Source: Escherichia phage EK010. From it: a stretch of 64,000 bases of DNA. The translations under genes and the position numbers were made by a program. The notes beneath the pieces were generated by a model that saw nothing but the letters and a program-made list of their open reading frames with translations, did no database searches and was not told the origin of the DNA. Positions 12,639 through 64,000 of this stretch are shown here, in pieces (position 1 is the first letter of the stretch; each line of letters opens with the position of its first letter). Location: sequence record NC_070981.1; one strand, written 5' to 3'.

Positions 12639-14099
12639 ATGATTAAGATTCCATTATCTGAATTGAACCTTCAAGAAGGAGAAGCCCTCAGTGTAGGGCT
12701 TGACCTGATTCGTAATTTGATCAGAGATAACGTAGTCCCTGATGGTATCTATCCTGTTATTGCAGGTGGTGCTATCCGTGATACGTTCTTCCAAAATCGA
12801 ACTCCGAATGATGTTGATATCTTCCTAGTTCAAGGAGGGCTTCGTTGGAACACTCGCCAGGAAAATAGCCCTGCTAACGTAGGTAATGCTGCACTGTTCC
12901 TTGACAACTTCTTATCTTGGACAGAAAGTAAGGGGCTTCAGGTTACATCTCGCCTAGTTCAGCCTGTTAACGGGACAACCTATGCTGAAGCGCTTTTCAC
13001 TTTCCAAGAGATTCTGGAAATTGAGATTGATCAAGTGAAGATTCAGATGATGATTAATCTCCCTCTGGATATGGATACTTTGAGTCGTCGCTTTCCTATG
13101 ATCTGTCAAGGGTTTATGACTCTTGGTGATTTGTATGTGTCAAACGAAGGTTTGTTTGCAATGTCATACACTCGTGACATTCCTGTGGTATCTAGTCGTG
13201 AAATGAAGTATGTTCACAAGAAGTGGCCTGAAGCAACTGTTGCAGTTTATAGCAGTTCTACCGAATATATGCACCTTGCAATGGGAGCTTTCGGTGAGCC
13301 AGAAGTTCACCTGATTAGTGATTTAGTTGGACCTATGGCTGGTGTAAATTTATATCAGAATCAGCGTCGTCATTATACCCTGAAGATGATGGAAACTATA
13401 TTAAACATTCCTCAGGAAAGGGGTCGTAGCTATCTGGACGAGGAAGTTAACCTACAGACAGAATGGTCTAGTGGATTAACCACTATAGGTGCTGAAGCAA
13501 TTACGCAGCCTTGGACTCCGGGAACTAACAGACGAGATCTTCAAGCTTTTAATGAAGAAACTTCTCGAACTGTTCGAGGAGGTGTTGTAGGGTATAACGT
13601 ACAACCTCATGAAAGACCTCGTGACACTTTTACTGGCAGTTTTGGTAGTGCACACTCTTCTGGAATGGATACTCGTACATGGCATGTCCAAGGAGGAACT
13701 GCTCGTCCTATTCCTTCTCCGTCAATGGATGATTTGCAGCGTTCTCGTCGTTCATGGGAAACAGTAAGCTCTGTTGTTCAGGGTCTACGTGCTAGTGATG
13801 TAGAACGTGTAGAAGTTGGCGATGTGCTGGAAGATGGATTGCTGGCGATAGCGGCTCGTGAAGCTGCTCGTACTGGCTTTGCATCTTTAGCTAATGATGC
13901 TAACGAAGCTCCTCGCCCTCGCCGTCGTAGCGGTTTAGCTCACTCTAACACTGAACTAGGTTCAGAACTCCGATCTGCTGCTCGTGAGCTATCTGGTGAG
14001 CTTCACAACAACCTAGCAGGTGTTACACTATCTCGTGAAACAGCTCGTAATATGATTAATAATTTGGCATCATCTGTACAAGGAAACAGAAACTCATGA
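12639..14099 (+). CDS. Pol-beta-superfamily nucleotidyltransferase (CCA-adding/poly(A) polymerase-like head) with Ser/Arg-rich low-complexity C-terminus
   Basis: 'IAGGAIRDTFF...NDVDIFL' matches GGAVRD + DxD catalytic motif; C-terminal half GC-rich and compositionally distinct. Confidence 0.5.
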   Translation: MIKIPLSELNLQEGEALSVGLDLIRNLIRDNVVPDGIYPVIAGGAIRDTFFQNRTPNDVDIFLVQGGLRWNTRQENSPANVGNAALFLDNFLSWTESKGLQVTSRLVQPVNGTTYAEALFTFQEILEIEIDQVKIQMMINLPLDMDTLSRRFPMICQGFMTLGDLYVSNEGLFAMSYTRDIPVVSSREMKYVHKKWPEATVAVYSSSTEYMHLAMGAFGEPEVHLISDLVGPMAGVNLYQNQRRHYTLKMMETILNIPQERGRSYLDEEVNLQTEWSSGLTTIGAEAITQPWTPGTNRRDLQAFNEETSRTVRGGVVGYNVQPHERPRDTFTGSFGSAHSSGMDTRTWHVQGGTARPIPSPSMDDLQRSRRSWETVSSVVQGLRASDVERVEVGDVLEDGLLAIAAREAARTGFASLANDANEAPRPRRRSGLAHSNTELGSELRSAARELSGELHNNLAGVTLSRETARNMINNLASSVQGNRNS

Positions 14100-14629
14100 G
14101 TCTTTTAGGTTCTCAAGAATTACACAGCGTTATTGATAGTGGCTTTTTAGATGCGGAGCATAAATATGTTAACGCTGCTAGTGTGGATATCCGTATTGGT
14201 GATACTATCCTTGTTGAAGAACAGGCTGATGGTATTGTTGACATTGATGCTAAAGAAAACCTCAAGTGGAAAGAAGTGAAAATCCCTGAAGATGGCATTG
14301 TCATTACTCCGGGACAGTTCTTCTTAGCTCACTCTATGGAAGAATTTAACCTTCCAGATAACATCTCAAGCCTGTTTGTACTCCGCTCCTCGATGGCTCG
14401 TTGTGGTTTGAACCACCTACATGCTGGTTGGGCTGATGCAGGGTTTAACAGCAGTAAGCTAACCTTTGAGTTCCATAACGTTACCCACAATCACAGCTTA
14501 CGAGTTCGTGCTGGGATGCGTGTTGGTCAAATGGTTATGTTTGAACACTCTCACGCTGGTGATGATTCCTATGCAGTGAAGGGTCGTTACAATGGCAGCA
14601 ATGGTGTAGTTGCTTCTAAAGGTGTATAA
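14096..14629 (+). CDS. dcd: dCTP deaminase
   Basis: 'VDIRIG', 'LRSSMARCGL', 'GWADAGFNSSKLTFEFHN' align with bacterial Dcd motifs. Confidence 0.7.
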   Translation: MSLLGSQELHSVIDSGFLDAEHKYVNAASVDIRIGDTILVEEQADGIVDIDAKENLKWKEVKIPEDGIVITPGQFFLAHSMEEFNLPDNISSLFVLRSSMARCGLNHLHAGWADAGFNSSKLTFEFHNVTHNHSLRVRAGMRVGQMVMFEHSHAGDDSYAVKGRYNGSNGVVASKGV

Positions 14630-14632
14630 TTG

Positions 14633-14845
14633 ATGGAGTTTGGAACAATGAAAAGACGTTGGGTAGTTCGTGTTCACTGGAGCAGTGGTGCAGAGTCAAT
14701 GGGTATTAGAAACACCCGTCAAGAAGCTCGCGCTCATAAGAAGTTCTTGTTAAGTTGTGAAAGCACAATTAATAAGATCACTATCCACAAAGCTCAAGAC
14801 TTTAAATCAGGTCGTTTCTATATCAGCGGAAAGGTACATTACTAA
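14633..14845 (+). CDS. small protein, paralog family member 1 of 4
   Basis: Shares W-x-V-x-V-x-W ... RQEAR ... K-I ... (V/I)HY pattern with 14845, 16709, 16929 ORFs. Confidence 0.5.
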   Translation: MEFGTMKRRWVVRVHWSSGAESMGIRNTRQEARAHKKFLLSCESTINKITIHKAQDFKSGRFYISGKVHY

Positions 14846-15051
14846 TGGCTAGATTATGGGCAGTTCGCGTTAAATGGGCTAACAAAGACCTTGGTGGTGA
14901 TTGTATTAAATTATTCGACACTCGACAAGAAGCTCGTCTTGCTAAGAAAGCTACAAAAGCTTTAGGTCTCGCTGAAAAAGTAGAGATTCATCGTTGGTTT
15001 CAAAATGACAATAACAGTGCAGGATCCTTGACTAGCAAGGTTCATTACTAG
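14845..15051 (+). CDS. small protein, paralog family member 2 of 4
   Basis: Same pattern; start overlaps upstream stop (TAATG). Confidence 0.5.
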   Translation: MARLWAVRVKWANKDLGGDCIKLFDTRQEARLAKKATKALGLAEKVEIHRWFQNDNNSAGSLTSKVHY

Positions 15052-15075
15052 TTGGTAGTAGATATGATAACTCTC

Positions 15076-15084
15076 AAATGTATA
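15076..15084 (+). promoter_or_regulatory. promoter-like motif AAATGTATA (one mismatch to TAATGTATA)
   Basis: Intergenic, 37 nt upstream of ATG 15122. Confidence 0.35.
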
Positions 15085-15121
15085 TACAGTATAAGAATAT
15101 TGTATGAAACAGGAGAGAGTT

Positions 15122-15451
15122 ATGTTAGATTTGAGTAAAGTGGCCCCGCCATCTGAAGAGATTAGCAAAGCTAAAGTTATGCAGCAGTTCTATCATCGGG
15201 ATATGCTTGGTCGTTATATCAAGAATCGTGATGTTGTTGCATGGTCTATTGGAAATCAAGGTTATCTTCTCAAAGTGTTGCAAGTTACTGGCTCAACAGC
15301 CAAGCGAGTCAAAGTCTATGACCCTGAAATGGGGCGTTCTAAATCAGTAGACCCTCAGAATTGCATTGTTATCACACAACAGGTCATGGATAACATTGCT
15401 CGTAATGTAGCTAATTCAACTAACTTAGAAGGGGATGCACCTAATGCATAA
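15122..15451 (+). CDS. hypothetical protein (109 aa)
   Basis: Internal ATG with AGGAGAG RBS; preceded by AAATGTATA motif. Confidence 0.55.
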   Translation: MLDLSKVAPPSEEISKAKVMQQFYHRDMLGRYIKNRDVVAWSIGNQGYLLKVLQVTGSTAKRVKVYDPEMGRSKSVDPQNCIVITQQVMDNIARNVANSTNLEGDAPNA

Positions 15452-16010
15452 TAATGTCTTCGACTTACCTGAACTAACACGAGTGGGTTCTAGCAACCCA
15501 TTCTCTACTACTGACTCTTCTATTTCTCGTCTTGAGGGAATGAATAAACTGATTAGTGGTAACAGCTTAGAACACATCTTATGTGATGTGCAAGCTAACC
15601 TTGAACTTCTACACATCAAAGCAAAGAACTACCACTGGAACGTCTCTGGAGCTGGTTTCCAAGGTGTTCATGGTATGTTCGATGAACTAGAAGATTATGC
15701 TCGTGAGGCAGGCGACCGAATAGCAGAGCGTATGCGCTTCCATTGTGTTAAGGTGGATGCCACTGCCAGTAACTATTTAGGTCACGCTTGGTTCCGAGAA
15801 GGTAACGCTGATCTCGACATGGACGGTATGCTTTCCGACATGTGCATGACTCTTATGTGTATCATTGAGAAGATGGATGAGTTTGATTCAGACTTGTGCA
15901 CCTATCCAGTGGACCAGAGTATGCTTCAAGAAATTAATGAAGGTCTTGGCAAGTTCTGTTACTTCGTCAAGAGCAACATGTCCCACTCCAGTGGTGATGT
16001 GTCTTACTAA
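15435..16010 (+). CDS. Dps-like ferritin (DNA-binding ferroxidase fold)
   Basis: 'NYHWNVSGAGFQGVHGMFDELEDYAREAGDRIAERM' matches the Dps signature; start may be ATG 15444. Confidence 0.6.
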   Translation: MHLMHNNVFDLPELTRVGSSNPFSTTDSSISRLEGMNKLISGNSLEHILCDVQANLELLHIKAKNYHWNVSGAGFQGVHGMFDELEDYAREAGDRIAERMRFHCVKVDATASNYLGHAWFREGNADLDMDGMLSDMCMTLMCIIEKMDEFDSDLCTYPVDQSMLQEINEGLGKFCYFVKSNMSHSSGDVSY

Positions 16011-16019
16011 TCAAACCTC

Positions 16020-16060
16020 CGCCCTGTCTCGTTTGTTCAAGAGGTGGGGCGAACTTTTTT
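16020..16060 (+). terminator. rho-independent terminator candidate after Dps-like gene
   Basis: Imperfect ~11-bp stem (three G-U pairs) followed by TTTTTT. Confidence 0.4.
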
Positions 16061-16074
16061 ATAAGGATGTGAAT

Positions 16075-16254
16075 ATGTTTTCAGCAATCGTATGGTCTGT
16101 GTGGGCAATTCTTGTTGGCGGTATCGTTTATCTGGCTCAGAAGCAGATGCTTAAAGAGAATCCGAATGATGCTAAAGCCATTAAACATGGCAGCATTGCT
16201 CTGGTAGTCTTCTCTGTTGTTATTCCTTTCCTTCTTCACCTATGGACTGCATAA
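16075..16254 (+). CDS. small membrane protein (two predicted TM helices)
   Basis: Internal ATG with AAGGA RBS; hydrophobic stretches; follows a hairpin + T-run. Confidence 0.5.
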   Translation: MFSAIVWSVWAILVGGIVYLAQKQMLKENPNDAKAIKHGSIALVVFSVVIPFLLHLWTA

Positions 16255-16430
16255 TGAAATTAAACCTCCCTGAAGAGCTACAAGCACATGCTATTATTGT
16301 TAGTGGCTGTGTAATGGGTCTTGGTCAGACGAAGAAGATTGCCCATGATTTAGCAAAAGGGCAGTATAAATCTTTTATTGTTGTTCCTGCTACCCAACGT
16401 CATATCAATCTGTTTATTAACAAGGAATAG
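16254..16430 (+). CDS. hypothetical protein (58 aa)
   Basis: ATG overlapping upstream stop (TAATG). Confidence 0.4.
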   Translation: MKLNLPEELQAHAIIVSGCVMGLGQTKKIAHDLAKGQYKSFIVVPATQRHINLFINKE

Positions 16431-16431
16431 A

Positions 16432-16707
16432 ATGAGTAAAGTGATTAAGTTTTATAGTAACTCCTGTGCTCCGTGTGCAGCTATGGCTCCTGTGTTTAAG
16501 AAGGTTGTGGCTGACTATAACGTTGAAGTTGAAGAGGTAAACATCTCTGAAGGTGATGGTCGAGAGCGGGCCATTGAGTATGGTGTTCGCAGTATCCCAG
16601 CCTTCATAGTCCCTGATAATAACAGTGGTGCTCACTATAGTTTGTCAGGTATGCAAACTGAATCTAATCTCCGTGCATTTTTAGACACGGCTCTGAAAGG
16701 TAAGTAA
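16432..16707 (+). CDS. thioredoxin/glutaredoxin-like protein
   Basis: 'SCAPC' CxxC active-site-like motif and 'VRSIPAF'; AAGGA RBS. Confidence 0.5.
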   Translation: MSKVIKFYSNSCAPCAAMAPVFKKVVADYNVEVEEVNISEGDGRERAIEYGVRSIPAFIVPDNNSGAHYSLSGMQTESNLRAFLDTALKGK

Positions 16708-16708
16708 T

Positions 16709-16921
16709 ATGTCCGAATGTAAATGGGCTTTACAAGTAAATTGGGGTGGTAATAGAAGTGACATTGCCGCCACTATCTCGTTACAACGAACCCGTGAAGC
16801 TGCTCGTACACTTCGTCGTATGTTTATCAGTGGTGGTCAGAAACCATGTGATGTTAAAATCTACAAAGTTAAACATACCAACGGTGTTATGCAAATTGAC
16901 ACCAACGTAAATTATCGCTGA
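16709..16921 (+). CDS. small protein, paralog family member 3 of 4
   Basis: W..V.W ... TREAAR ... C-terminal NYR. Confidence 0.5.
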   Translation: MSECKWALQVNWGGNRSDIAATISLQRTREAARTLRRMFISGGQKPCDVKIYKVKHTNGVMQIDTNVNYR

Positions 16922-16928
16922 GGCAGAT

Positions 16929-17144
16929 ATGGAAAAGAAACCTTGGGTTACTTTTTGGGTAGTTAAGTGGTTTAATTTTGATAGTACAATCCCTAGCTTC
17001 TCAACATACTCCACACGGAAAGAGGCTCGTCGGTTTAAGCGAGCTTTAAAAATTGCTAATACCGGTGCTTCTAAGATTACAATCCAGAAAGGGATTGAAA
17101 CAGAAAGCGGAAGCAACATGGTTTATAAAAAGATTCACTATTAA
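16929..17144 (+). CDS. small protein, paralog family member 4 of 4
   Basis: W..V.W ... RKEAR ... C-terminal IHY. Confidence 0.5.
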   Translation: MEKKPWVTFWVVKWFNFDSTIPSFSTYSTRKEARRFKRALKIANTGASKITIQKGIETESGSNMVYKKIHY

Positions 17145-17151
17145 GGAAGAA

Positions 17152-17619
17152 ATGATACAAGACGACTTGGAATACAACCCTAAGACTGGAGACTTCTTCT
17201 GGAAGAACACAAAAGGTCGAAGGGTTAAAGGAAATCAAGCTGGGTATGTATCTTCTCTAGGTTATCGTTACATTGAGCATGAAGGGAAAAGCTACAGAGC
17301 TTGTCGCCTTGCTTGGTTCTTTGTTCATGGAAAGTTTCCTGAGTTTGAAATTGACCACATCGACCAGAACAAACTTAATGACTCAATTGATAACCTAAGA
17401 GATGTGAATCCATCTACTAACTGCCATAACAGAAGGCAGTACGATGTTGATAACAAGATAGGAAATCTTCCTAGAGGTGTGTATCTTCGTAAGACAGCTT
17501 CTGGTGATAAATATCGAGCCATTATCGGCGTCAAAGGTAAGAATATATACTTAGGGACTTTTGCTTCTTGTGAAGAGGCAGAAGAAGTTTACAACAAGGA
17601 GAAGTTGAAGTATGTCTGA
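17152..17619 (+). CDS. HNH homing endonuclease with AP2-like DNA-binding domain
   Basis: 'IDHIDQNKLNDSIDNLRDVNPSTNCHN' HNH motif plus AP2-like 'GV...GDKYRAIIGVKGKNIYLGTF'; AAGGAAG RBS; directly upstream of ThyX. Confidence 0.65.
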   Translation: MIQDDLEYNPKTGDFFWKNTKGRRVKGNQAGYVSSLGYRYIEHEGKSYRACRLAWFFVHGKFPEFEIDHIDQNKLNDSIDNLRDVNPSTNCHNRRQYDVDNKIGNLPRGVYLRKTASGDKYRAIIGVKGKNIYLGTFASCEEAEEVYNKEKLKYV

Positions 17620-18262
17620 TTTTTTAAAAGCAACACTGGTAGAGCACATGGGTTCCGACAAATCTGTGGTCAATGCAGCAAGGGTTTCCTTTGGTGTGAC
17701 ACGAGATGGTGATCTGAACGAACGTGACGAGCGGTTGATTAAATTCTTAGCTCGGGAACGTCATGTGACTCCTTTTCGACACCCTCAAATCACCTTTCGG
17801 TGTAAGGCTCCCATTGCAATTGCTAGACAACTCAATAAACACCAAGTTGGATTCTCATGGAACGAAATGTCCCGGCGGTATAAAGATGGAGCAGTTGAAC
17901 TCTTCATCCCTAAAGAGATTTTTGAAAGACCTTCGGACCTCCATGCAGGTGCGGGGAATCTCCTTACCACAGGAGCACAAAACTCTGCACTAGTTCTGAT
18001 TAATCGGGCATACGAAACAGCTCTTGAGTCGTATGATGAATTGATTAAGTTTATCGCTCCAGAGCAAGCTCGATTTGTTCTACCTCAAGGTATGATCACG
18101 GAGTGGGTGTGGACAGGTTCTTTATATGGCTGGTCAGAGTTATGTCGTCAGCGACTGTCCGACCATGCTCAGTATGAAGTACGAGTGTTCGCATCAACGG
18201 TCGATGAAGAGCTTCGTAAACTTTTCCCAATCTCATGGGATGCACTACGTGAAGCCCACTAA
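17612..18262 (+). CDS. thyX: flavin-dependent thymidylate synthase (ThyX family)
   Basis: 'LVEHMGSD...AARVSF', 'KAPIAIARQ', 'NEMSRRY', 'SDHAQYEVR' match ThyX conserved blocks. Confidence 0.65.
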   Translation: MSDFLKATLVEHMGSDKSVVNAARVSFGVTRDGDLNERDERLIKFLARERHVTPFRHPQITFRCKAPIAIARQLNKHQVGFSWNEMSRRYKDGAVELFIPKEIFERPSDLHAGAGNLLTTGAQNSALVLINRAYETALESYDELIKFIAPEQARFVLPQGMITEWVWTGSLYGWSELCRQRLSDHAQYEVRVFASTVDEELRKLFPISWDALREAH

Positions 18263-18437
18263 AGTATGTAGCTTCTGTCAAAAGCAGAAGCTTCTTATCA
18301 ATTTCAAGCTGAACGAGGAAACAGGTTTGGGTCATGCTTTTTGTCATGATTGCAGGCACTACCTTGAACAGAAGCAACACATAAACTGGTTGCATTACTA
18401 CCATCCAACAACATTCAAATTTAAGGTTGTTAAATGA
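18240..18437 (+). CDS. small Cys-rich protein (C-x2-C ... C-x2-C)
   Basis: Internal ATG of track ORF; 'CSFC...CHDC'; overlaps ThyX 3' end. Confidence 0.35.
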   Translation: MHYVKPTKVCSFCQKQKLLINFKLNEETGLGHAFCHDCRHYLEQKQHINWLHYYHPTTFKFKVVK

Positions 18438-18637
18438 GAACATTGTGGACTCTTGACTGTCAAGATGATGAAGGAGAGCGTTGGACTTGGAAATATTTCC
18501 TAGATAAACCAACACCTGATAACCCTGCTTTAGATTTTACTTCATATGAAGATGCTAAGAAGTTAGTAAACGGAGAAAAGGTTTGGTCTCCGGATGATGA
18601 AGTTCAATACTTTTTAACAGAACGGAAATTTTCATAA
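18434..18637 (+). CDS. hypothetical protein (67 aa)
   Basis: ATG overlapping upstream stop. Confidence 0.45.
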   Translation: MRTLWTLDCQDDEGERWTWKYFLDKPTPDNPALDFTSYEDAKKLVNGEKVWSPDDEVQYFLTERKFS

Positions 18638-18957
18638 TGATTGACAGTAATACATTTAGGACTGGTAACGGAAACGAGATTAGTCCTGCTGAAGTGATTA
18701 AACGACACAGAACGCAGATGCTTATCCATTCCTATCTGTATTATTGGTTGGATGACCCAATCTGGTCTGATGACAAATGGCAACAAGTGGCTGATGACTT
18801 AACCACTTTGCAAGAGATGTATCCTGAGCCTATCGGATTCTTTGATTCAGAGTTCAATGGATGGAATGGCTCCACTGGTATGCATCTTCCTCATGACGAG
18901 CGTATAGCTTGTATGGCTACTGAAGTATACCGTTTACATAAGGACAAATCAATCTGA
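18637..18957 (+). CDS. small protein resembling the N-terminal Ia (NMN-binding) domain of NAD-dependent DNA ligase
   Basis: 'HSYLYYWLDDPIWSDDKW...LTTLQEMYPEP' aligns by eye to LigA '[21 protein letters not shown]...LETKHPEL'; no KxDG adenylation motif nearby. Confidence 0.4.
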   Translation: MIDSNTFRTGNGNEISPAEVIKRHRTQMLIHSYLYYWLDDPIWSDDKWQQVADDLTTLQEMYPEPIGFFDSEFNGWNGSTGMHLPHDERIACMATEVYRLHKDKSI

Positions 18958-19139
18958 AATGTTTTAAATGTGAATCAACTCTTCTCCATTTGGACTCGAA
19001 AGTAATACGGGAGCTTGCCAAAGGCTCCCCGACTAAAGGGAAGAATAAGAAGTTTGTCGAAATTAAGGTTATAGGTATCCATTGCTCAGAGTGTAAATCC
19101 TGTAGCTTCTTATATGAAGAACACGGAGGTAGGAAATGA
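18942..19139 (+). CDS. candidate zinc-ribbon protein with no canonical start codon
   Basis: 66-codon open frame filling the gap before phoH, ending in TGA that overlaps the phoH ATG; C-x2-C-x37-C-x2-C-x2-C; only ATC/CTG available as in-frame starts; -1 frame relative to upstream ORF. Confidence 0.3.
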   Translation, partial: GQINLKCFKCESTLLHLDSKVIRELAKGSPTKGKNKKFVEIKVIGIHCSECKSCSFLYEEHGGRK

Positions 19140-63494: not shown

Positions 63495-64000
63495 TATCCA
63501 CCCATTTACTATTCCTAACCTTACCACAGTCTGCGCATCTCCATGTACTCTTGTAATAAGCGTGTAACCGTTCATCACCTCTTGATATCCGGATTGGATA
63601 GTACTCGTGATTACATTTGAATTGCTTAATTAGTAACTTAATCTTCCACATAAAATAGTTCCTTATTCTTATATATAAGAGTTTAAAATTTCAATTTGAC
63701 CGAGTGGACCTAGCCTCTCCGAGCGCGTTTCCTAAAAAGGGGGAGTCCTCATTTAAAAAAGGGTTATTACCAATGCAATTGCCTTTAGGAAATCAACCAG
63801 CCTTTAAGCCCTAAGCCCTAGCTCCCTTGCTACCAGTGGCATACCTGCCCATAAATACCCTACCCATTGATATTAGACATGCATTATTTACCCATGTATA
63901 TCTAACCAGTATTCTCCCACCCGTATTTCTCTTACTCATGTTAAGGAAGGATGAAAGGCTAGAGACCTTCTACACTAAGATTGGAATGGATGGTAAGAAG

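Follow-up and report, generated by a model that had tools for sequence, protein, structure and literature searches.

The gene at positions 15444..16010 (+ strand) of the window, by which we mean the whole 64,000-nucleotide stretch of the Escherichia phage EK010 sequence analyzed here (NC_070981.1), encodes a Dps-type mini-ferritin of the ferritin-like superfamily; profile matches, sequence matches in the PDB, predicted fold, and active-site residues agree on this assignment. The identification is correct but was already known, and the gene is an ordinary one for its phage lineage. We consider it probable that the product is a dodecamer, made with the middle genes, that would oxidize and sequester Fe2+ using H2O2 and so limit Fenton damage during phage DNA replication. 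What the sequence appears to add to the published annotation is modest: a case against intrinsic DNA binding, an N-terminal extension found in one subclade, six cysteines, and a coupled, basic gp68-like protein as a candidate partner.

Results

Family assignment, fold, and ferroxidase center

The first-pass annotation had described the product as a phage-encoded Dps-like ferritin and had pointed to profile searches against the Dps and ferritin families as a check, and this description is borne out by profile, structural, and active-site comparisons alike. The Pfam Ferritin profile (PF00210) reaches 33.4 bits, above its gathering cutoff (24.5), with the aligned part confined to residues 55 to 102 of the 191-residue ORF (see below), and PHROG 3636 gives a full-length match (E = 1e-52) in which residues 40 to 184 align with positions 3 to 149 of the 149-position profile. 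A phmmer search of the PDB returns 57 matches, essentially all of them Dps proteins and headed by Dps2 from M. smegmatis (MsDps2; 2.8e-10). This resemblance to the Dps/ferritin families far exceeds chance. An AF2 model built from 26 sequences (mean pLDDT 82, pTM 0.72; pLDDT 88–97 in the core) places helices A (42–66), B (72–99), BC (108–113), C (126–146), and D (155–178) in the Dps topology, with residue numbers here and throughout following the 188-residue protein. The ferritin-like four-helix bundle on which the original assignment hinged is thus present in the model, which shows no C-terminal fifth helix (E) like that of 24-mer ferritins. Each of the best 50 Foldseek matches in the PDB is a Dps chain (TM score normalized to the target, 0.77–0.90).

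Seven residues, K61, H64, W65, H76, D80, D91, and E95, do not vary among the 26 aligned homologues, which range down to 39% identity, and are identical in the homologues from Proteus phage Privateer, Salmonella phage 7-11, Cronobacter phage GAP52, and Aeromonas phage LAh_8, which represent four other phage genera. The alignment equates them with K48, H51, W52, H63, D67, D78, and E82 of E. coli Dps; this mapping uses what we take to be the E. coli Dps sequence, in a register that fits the HMMER aligned ranges of 1dps and 1qgh. The ferroxidase-center segment, composed of the end of helix A and helix B (15627..15734, + strand) and invariant in the same 26 homologues and in five reference phage homologues, includes H64 (15633–15635), the adjacent W65, H76 (15669–15671), D80 (15681–15683), D91 (15714–15716), and E95 (15726–15728). 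Both halves of the Dps inter-subunit ferroxidase center are therefore kept, with H64, H76, and D80 in one and D91 and E95 in the other. A 24-mer ferritin or bacterioferritin is ruled out by the Dps-type inter-subunit motif, the BC helix, and the all-Dps composition of the top structural matches.

Two further features of the protein can be recorded here. The CD-loop region is rich in acidic residues (D145, E146, D148, D150, and D157), and P155, V156, and Q158 are invariant or almost so in the 26-homologue alignment. The protein also contains six Cys, C47, C101, C134, C139, C152, and C172, several of which are conserved in the clade; E. coli Dps has none.

Gene model and start codon

The ORF originally reported at 15435..16010 (+ strand), which encodes 191 residues, and the peptide quoted from it, NYHWNVSGAGFQGVHGMFDELEDYAREAGDRIAERM, encoded at 15627..15734, are both found in the sequence as given. 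We consider the in-frame ATG at 15444, which yields a protein of 188 residues, to be the likelier start and have dropped the upstream ATG at 15435, because Shine–Dalgarno spacing, homologue N termini, and GenBank annotation all favor the former. A Shine–Dalgarno-like GAAGGGG, read from the sequence at 15428..15434 (+ strand), stands 9 nt before ATG 15444 and abuts ATG 15435, which points to 15444 as the start; Dps homologues in an alignment of 26 begin with MHNN or MHKN; and the GenBank record of phage E20-1 takes ATG 15444 as the start of the gene. Shine–Dalgarno-like elements also precede the Dps start in Privateer, LAh_8, GAP52, and the IMG/VR contig L016. Just 3′ of the Dps stop codon, a consensus scan picks out a weak, putative terminator-like hairpin followed by a T-run (16025..16060, + strand).

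Distance from cellular Dps proteins

The phage protein stays below cutoff with each of the NCBIfam Dps/DpsA equivalog models: NF006975 (35.1 bits; cutoff 114), NF041388 (32.0 bits; cutoff 170), and NF052461 (17.4 bits; cutoff 300). By sequence comparison, the EK010 Dps is neither equivalog nor ortholog to the Dps of its host or to other curated cellular members of the family, and its C-terminal half can be called divergent because the Pfam match is limited to its short internal segment and the NCBIfam scores fall far under their cutoffs. We also considered whether the phage had recently acquired dps from its E. coli host and rejected this: the two proteins share 39% identity over just 41 residues, the NCBIfam Dps model gives 35 where 114 is required, and among solved structures the nearest are Dps proteins from actinobacteria and Firmicutes.

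Searching 1.84 billion cluster representatives with a profile retrieves 5,218 relatives at E ≤ 1e-3, only eight of which fall below 1e-30 before the matches blend into generic Dps. One of these eight (P0064; 1,156 residues, 20 hits) proved to be a tandem-repeat sequence and not a Dps. These sequence criteria set the EK010-type Dps proteins apart as a small phage clade of their own within the superfamily.

Distribution among phages and earlier annotation

The window is 100% identical to the reverse strand of E20-1 (OP293233) over 13000–19000 and 99.8% identical over 40000–63772. E20-1 is a Kuravirus of the Gordonclarkvirinae, a group of C3 podophages (prolate heads) of the phiEco32 type. The final ~227 bases of the window (63773..64000) extend beyond position 1 in the linear record of E20-1 and match that record at a second place; this overrun implies that the stretch is circularly permuted or terminally redundant with respect to the E20-1 GenBank entry. 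The Dps protein is 100% identical to E20-1 ORF66 and 84% identical, over the full length, to phiEco32 gp67, described in its record since 2008 as a "DNA-binding protein, member of the Dps family." In E20-1, as in many related records, the same gene (ORF66) is mislabeled "integrase," and the E20-1 record also mislabels the thioredoxin gene (ORF63) as "holin." Correct annotation, in place of the "integrase" label in the E20-1 GenBank entry, is thus the main use of the present assignment.

A tblastn search finds members of this Dps clade in 132 of 50,697 phage records. Near full-length matches at ≥82% identity account for 96 of the 132 and correspond to Kuravirus-type phages; the other 36, at <60% identity, comprise 7-11-like, Privateer-like, and GAP52-like phages, Aeromonas phages, and one cyanophage. 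Dps is therefore rare among phages overall and a core gene in the Kuravirus-type lineage, such that the earlier remark that Dps proteins are unusual in phage genomes holds for phages taken together and fails within this lineage, with Dps present in other phage groups as well. Indeed, Dps-like genes are also documented in Lactobacillus myophages, gut "Gratiaviridae," BFVD, and IMG/VR. A further scan of IMG/VR added one clade member, on L016, to the known genomes.

Some viral Dps folds occur within much larger proteins. BFVD entries A0A6J7XDU5, A0A6J7WPK9, A0A6J7WIS1, and others (290–763 residues) contain internal Dps-fold domains, and some of these are named "Prohead protease"; among uncultured-phage proteins, P0081 (777 residues) contains two Dps domains and P0108 (406 residues) also embeds Dps in a larger chain. 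These architectures suggest that in other phages a Dps module may form one chain with proteins of the capsid interior or of head maturation.

Charge, tails, and DNA binding

DNA binding by characterized Dps proteins generally occurs through flexible basic tails, a point also made in PMC13319912. The EK010 protein has a pI of 4.72 and a net charge of −15 per subunit, as compared to −4 for E. coli Dps, and a search of its sequence for a Lys/Arg-rich flexible N- or C-terminal tail found none. The N-terminal 45 residues hold one Lys, two Arg, two Asp, and three Glu, and the C-terminal 13 residues one Lys and one Asp. The N-terminal extension (residues 1–41; 15444..15566, + strand), which has only three Lys/Arg and four Asp/Glu, is non-basic, carries a conserved S-x-x-R-L-[DE]-x-M motif, and is found in the Kuravirus-type subclade only; it is absent from the Privateer, 7-11, GAP52, and LAh_8 homologues. 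In the AF2 model it has low pLDDT, with a tentative helix at residues 26 to 38.

An acidic protein with no Lys-rich tail offers no sequence support for DNA binding, and direct binding by this protein alone is unlikely. The peptide NYHWNVSGAGFQGVHGMFDELEDYAREAGDRIAERM had been read at the first pass as a combined ferroxidase and DNA-binding signature; it stands as a ferroxidase-center or family signature, and the DNA-binding half of that reading lacks support from the sequence, given the low pI, the net charge of −15, and the missing tail. We accordingly regard as quite improbable the proposal that this Dps primarily binds or condenses DNA, that it coats or compacts the DNA of the phage or the nucleoid of the host, and that its ferroxidase activity is secondary. 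The label "DNA-binding protein" in phiEco32, many relatives, and PHROG 3636 would favor it, but that label was seemingly carried over from the family name, and, widely copied as it is, lacks backing from the Dps sequence. The proposal would also draw on the nearest solved relatives, MsDps1 and MsDps2, which bind DNA (PMC2779847), on the short N-terminal tails with Lys/Arg in the shorter Grimontviridae and Lahexavirus homologues, and on the basic gp68-like neighbor, which could give DNA affinity in trans. Against these stand the strongly acidic subunit and the non-basic character of both the N-terminal extension and the C-terminal tail in EK010 itself.

A replication and nucleotide-metabolism neighborhood

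In all lineages examined, the Dps locus lies in a replication and nucleotide-metabolism module. The block reads, in order, primase/helicase, polymerase exonuclease, nucleotidyltransferase, dCTP deaminase, small ORFs, gp68-like, Dps, small ORFs, thioredoxin, HNH, and ThyX, and the same module surrounds Dps in Privateer, 7-11, GAP52, and LAh_8, with NrdD/NrdG nearby. Just upstream of the small ORFs, the + strand encodes the nucleotidyltransferase (12639..14099; phrog_12715, 486 residues) and the dCTP deaminase (14096..14629), a pair for which the BASEL paper (PMC11990801) speculates a DNA-modification function that would explain the restriction-modification resistance of Gordonclarkvirinae. The thioredoxin gene (16432..16707, + strand; Pfam Thioredoxin, 1.2e-12) belongs to the conserved thioredoxin/gp68-like/Dps neighborhood and adjoins the gp68-like gene in Privateer, GAP52, and 7-11. 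In EK010, the gene for Dps, with its six Cys, lies ~420 nt upstream of the thioredoxin gene, a possible redox connection.

Four paralogous ORFs of 65 to 71 residues lie on either side of Dps (14648..14845, 14845..15051, 16709..16921, and 16929..17144, all + strand). Three of the four match phrog_4939, and the fourth joins them by a purpose-built alignment and HMM; they share the pattern W-x-V-x-V-x-W ... T-R-x-E-A-R ... K-[IV]-x-I-[HYQ]-K ... [VI]-[HN]-Y. Three end in -HY and the fourth in -NYR; most Kuravirus-type Dps proteins also end in Tyr. PADLOC returned no match for Dps, the gp68-like protein, or these small paralogues, and a defense or anti-defense role was set aside on that basis.

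The presence of the anaerobic ribonucleotide reductase NrdD and of NrdG beside Dps in relatives, together with the intact ferroxidase center, could be taken to indicate an iron reservoir or donor that serves phage or host iron enzymes (Fe–S or radical nucleotide-synthesis enzymes), or a manipulator of host Fur regulation. However, neither NrdD/NrdG nor any other obviously iron-dependent enzyme is annotated in the ~8.5 kb around Dps in E20-1 and phiEco32, where ThyX is a flavoenzyme, and we hold such a role to be highly improbable, although computation hardly distinguishes it from an antioxidant one.

A basic gp68-like neighbor

Directly upstream of Dps lies the gp68-like gene (15122..15451, + strand), which encodes a basic protein of 109 residues (pI 9.1) with a predicted SH3/Tudor/KOW-like small β-barrel. 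Searches with Pfam and NCBIfam gave no match for it, and phrog_10984 is its sole family. The last 8 nt of the gp68-like gene, stop codon included, overlap the start of Dps. Orthologs (E = 1e-14 to 1e-17) are found directly upstream of Dps, with overlaps of 1 to 8 nt, in phiEco32, Privateer, GAP52, and LAh_8; on L016 the ortholog lies 8 nt from Dps, and in 7-11 it sits beside thioredoxin, 1.3 kb upstream of Dps. The gp68-like gene is present at 16 of 16 loci with this Dps clade and at none of seven loci with more distant viral Dps proteins. This co-occurrence comes from a single related phage supergroup with shared ancestry and synteny and is therefore not independent evidence of a functional link.

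Across homologues, the pI of gp68-like proteins ranges from 8.8 to 10.1, as against 4.6 to 5.4 for Dps. The gp68-like protein is also far more conserved than the overlapping Dps, with a mean column identity of 82% over 17 homologues. Where Dps homologues drop to 47 to 52% identity, gp68-like homologues stay at 71 to 75%, and contigs with matching lengths (1864, 1686, and 4912 nt) turn up in both match lists. This overall pattern suggests that gp68-like and Dps are translationally coupled and possibly complexed, which makes the gp68-like protein a candidate partner. A more specific scheme, to which we assign a rather low probability, is that an acidic Dps cage and a basic gp68-like protein form a two-component system in which the latter would act as a trans-acting tail tethering the cage either to phage DNA or to some component of the replication machinery or the capsid. 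If true, this would be a phage-specific variant of Dps-mediated DNA protection, and the tether could explain the recovery of Dps in purified Privateer virions (see below). Should the pairing be a physical complex, it would represent a small piece of new phage biology on iron or ROS management, or DNA protection, in lytic replication.

Expression and possible virion association

The SU10 paper (PMC4281155) discusses the Dps protein as a middle gene product and reports its detection by MS at 35.8% coverage; that 2014 sample had been prepared by PEG precipitation only, and DNA polymerase, the sigma factor, and PhoH were present in it as well. The Privateer paper (PMC7881722) reports detection of the Dps homologue by LC-MS/MS in virions purified through a CsCl step and equilibrium gradients. 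The 2022 cryo-EM study of SU10, with its structural-protein table for purified virions, does not include Dps. Presence in the virion proteome, raised at the first pass as a point to check, is thus reported for the homologue in the CsCl-purified Privateer preparation and not in the SU10 table.

These data bear on the possibility that Dps is built into the prolate C3 capsid, where, by analogy with the ferritin-like cargo of encapsulins (HK97-fold), it might protect packaged DNA or enter the next host. The Privateer and SU10 detections, the Dps-fold domains in long BFVD phage proteins named "Prohead protease," and the conserved N-terminal extension and C-terminal Tyr of Kuravirus-type Dps would all be compatible with such an arrangement. 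However, the gene sits in the middle replication module and not in a late structural operon, and no copy of the phage-sigma late-promoter motif TAATGTAT is found upstream of Dps on the coding strand; the SU10 sample that yielded the protein held nonstructural enzymes as well; and a 12-mer cage, especially if iron-loaded, could co-purify with virions. We judge incorporation into the virion to be quite unlikely on balance, and the Privateer detection hints at a role for Dps outside the replication compartment.

Discussion

Proposed function

We favor a role for this Dps in limiting Fenton damage, which is the most likely one because the gene sits in the replication and nucleotide-metabolism middle module. 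H76 and D91 lie 15 residues (~22 Å) apart on one helix, so that the iron site would form only across the two-fold subunit interface, and, with both ferroxidase halves conserved, we infer that oligomerization, or at least the two-fold dimer interface, has been retained. From what is known of the Dps family, the subunits would assemble, most likely into a 12-subunit cage, which would oxidize Fe2+, preferentially with H2O2, and store Fe3+ inside. Made alongside the middle genes, the cage would reduce the levels of free Fe2+ and H2O2 during infection, so that redox-sensitive enzymes and phage DNA under replication would suffer less Fenton damage. Our literature search turned up no work that examined any phage Dps functionally, biochemically, or genetically. 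A mini-ferritin that is catalytically intact by its sequence has been retained across a whole lineage of prolate (C3) podophages as a core gene beside nucleotide-metabolism genes.

Comparison with known Dps systems

The closest known systems are phiEco32 gp67 (ABY52868.1) and SU10 CDS67, direct orthologs that lie between gp68 and thioredoxin and have an equal N-terminal extension; they show no substantive difference from the EK010 protein. Privateer gp068 and its counterparts in 7-11, GAP52, and LAh_8, all from Grimontviridae/Lahexavirus C3 podophages, belong to one clade with it at 33 to 44% identity and share its catalytic residues, the nucleotide-metabolism module, and the gp68-like neighbor. 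They differ in being shorter (146–156 residues), in lacking the Kuravirus N-terminal extension and C-terminal tail, and in having short, mildly basic N-terminal tails.

Other phage Dps proteins, from the Lactobacillus phages LP65 and Semele, Bacillus phage G (gp346), "Gratiaviridae," and IMG/VR (L017–L023), have the Dps fold and ferroxidase motif in common with EK010, and an antioxidant or iron role has been proposed by the authors. These proteins fall into separate clades with at most ~42% identity, over the motif only, are not accompanied by a gp68-like gene, and in some cases are parts of larger fusions.

Finally, the cellular Dps dodecamers, including MsDps2 (2z90/4m35), MsDps1 (1uvh), B. 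anthracis Dlp-2 (1jig), and the L. innocua (1qgh) and E. coli (1dps) proteins, share with the phage Dps the four-helix bundle and the BC helix, and all ferroxidase residues as well as the neighboring Trp and Lys are identical. Identity over the fold is only ~19 to 26%, and the phage protein departs from its cellular relatives in being far more acidic, in lacking a Lys-rich tail, and in possessing a 41-residue, non-basic N-terminal extension.
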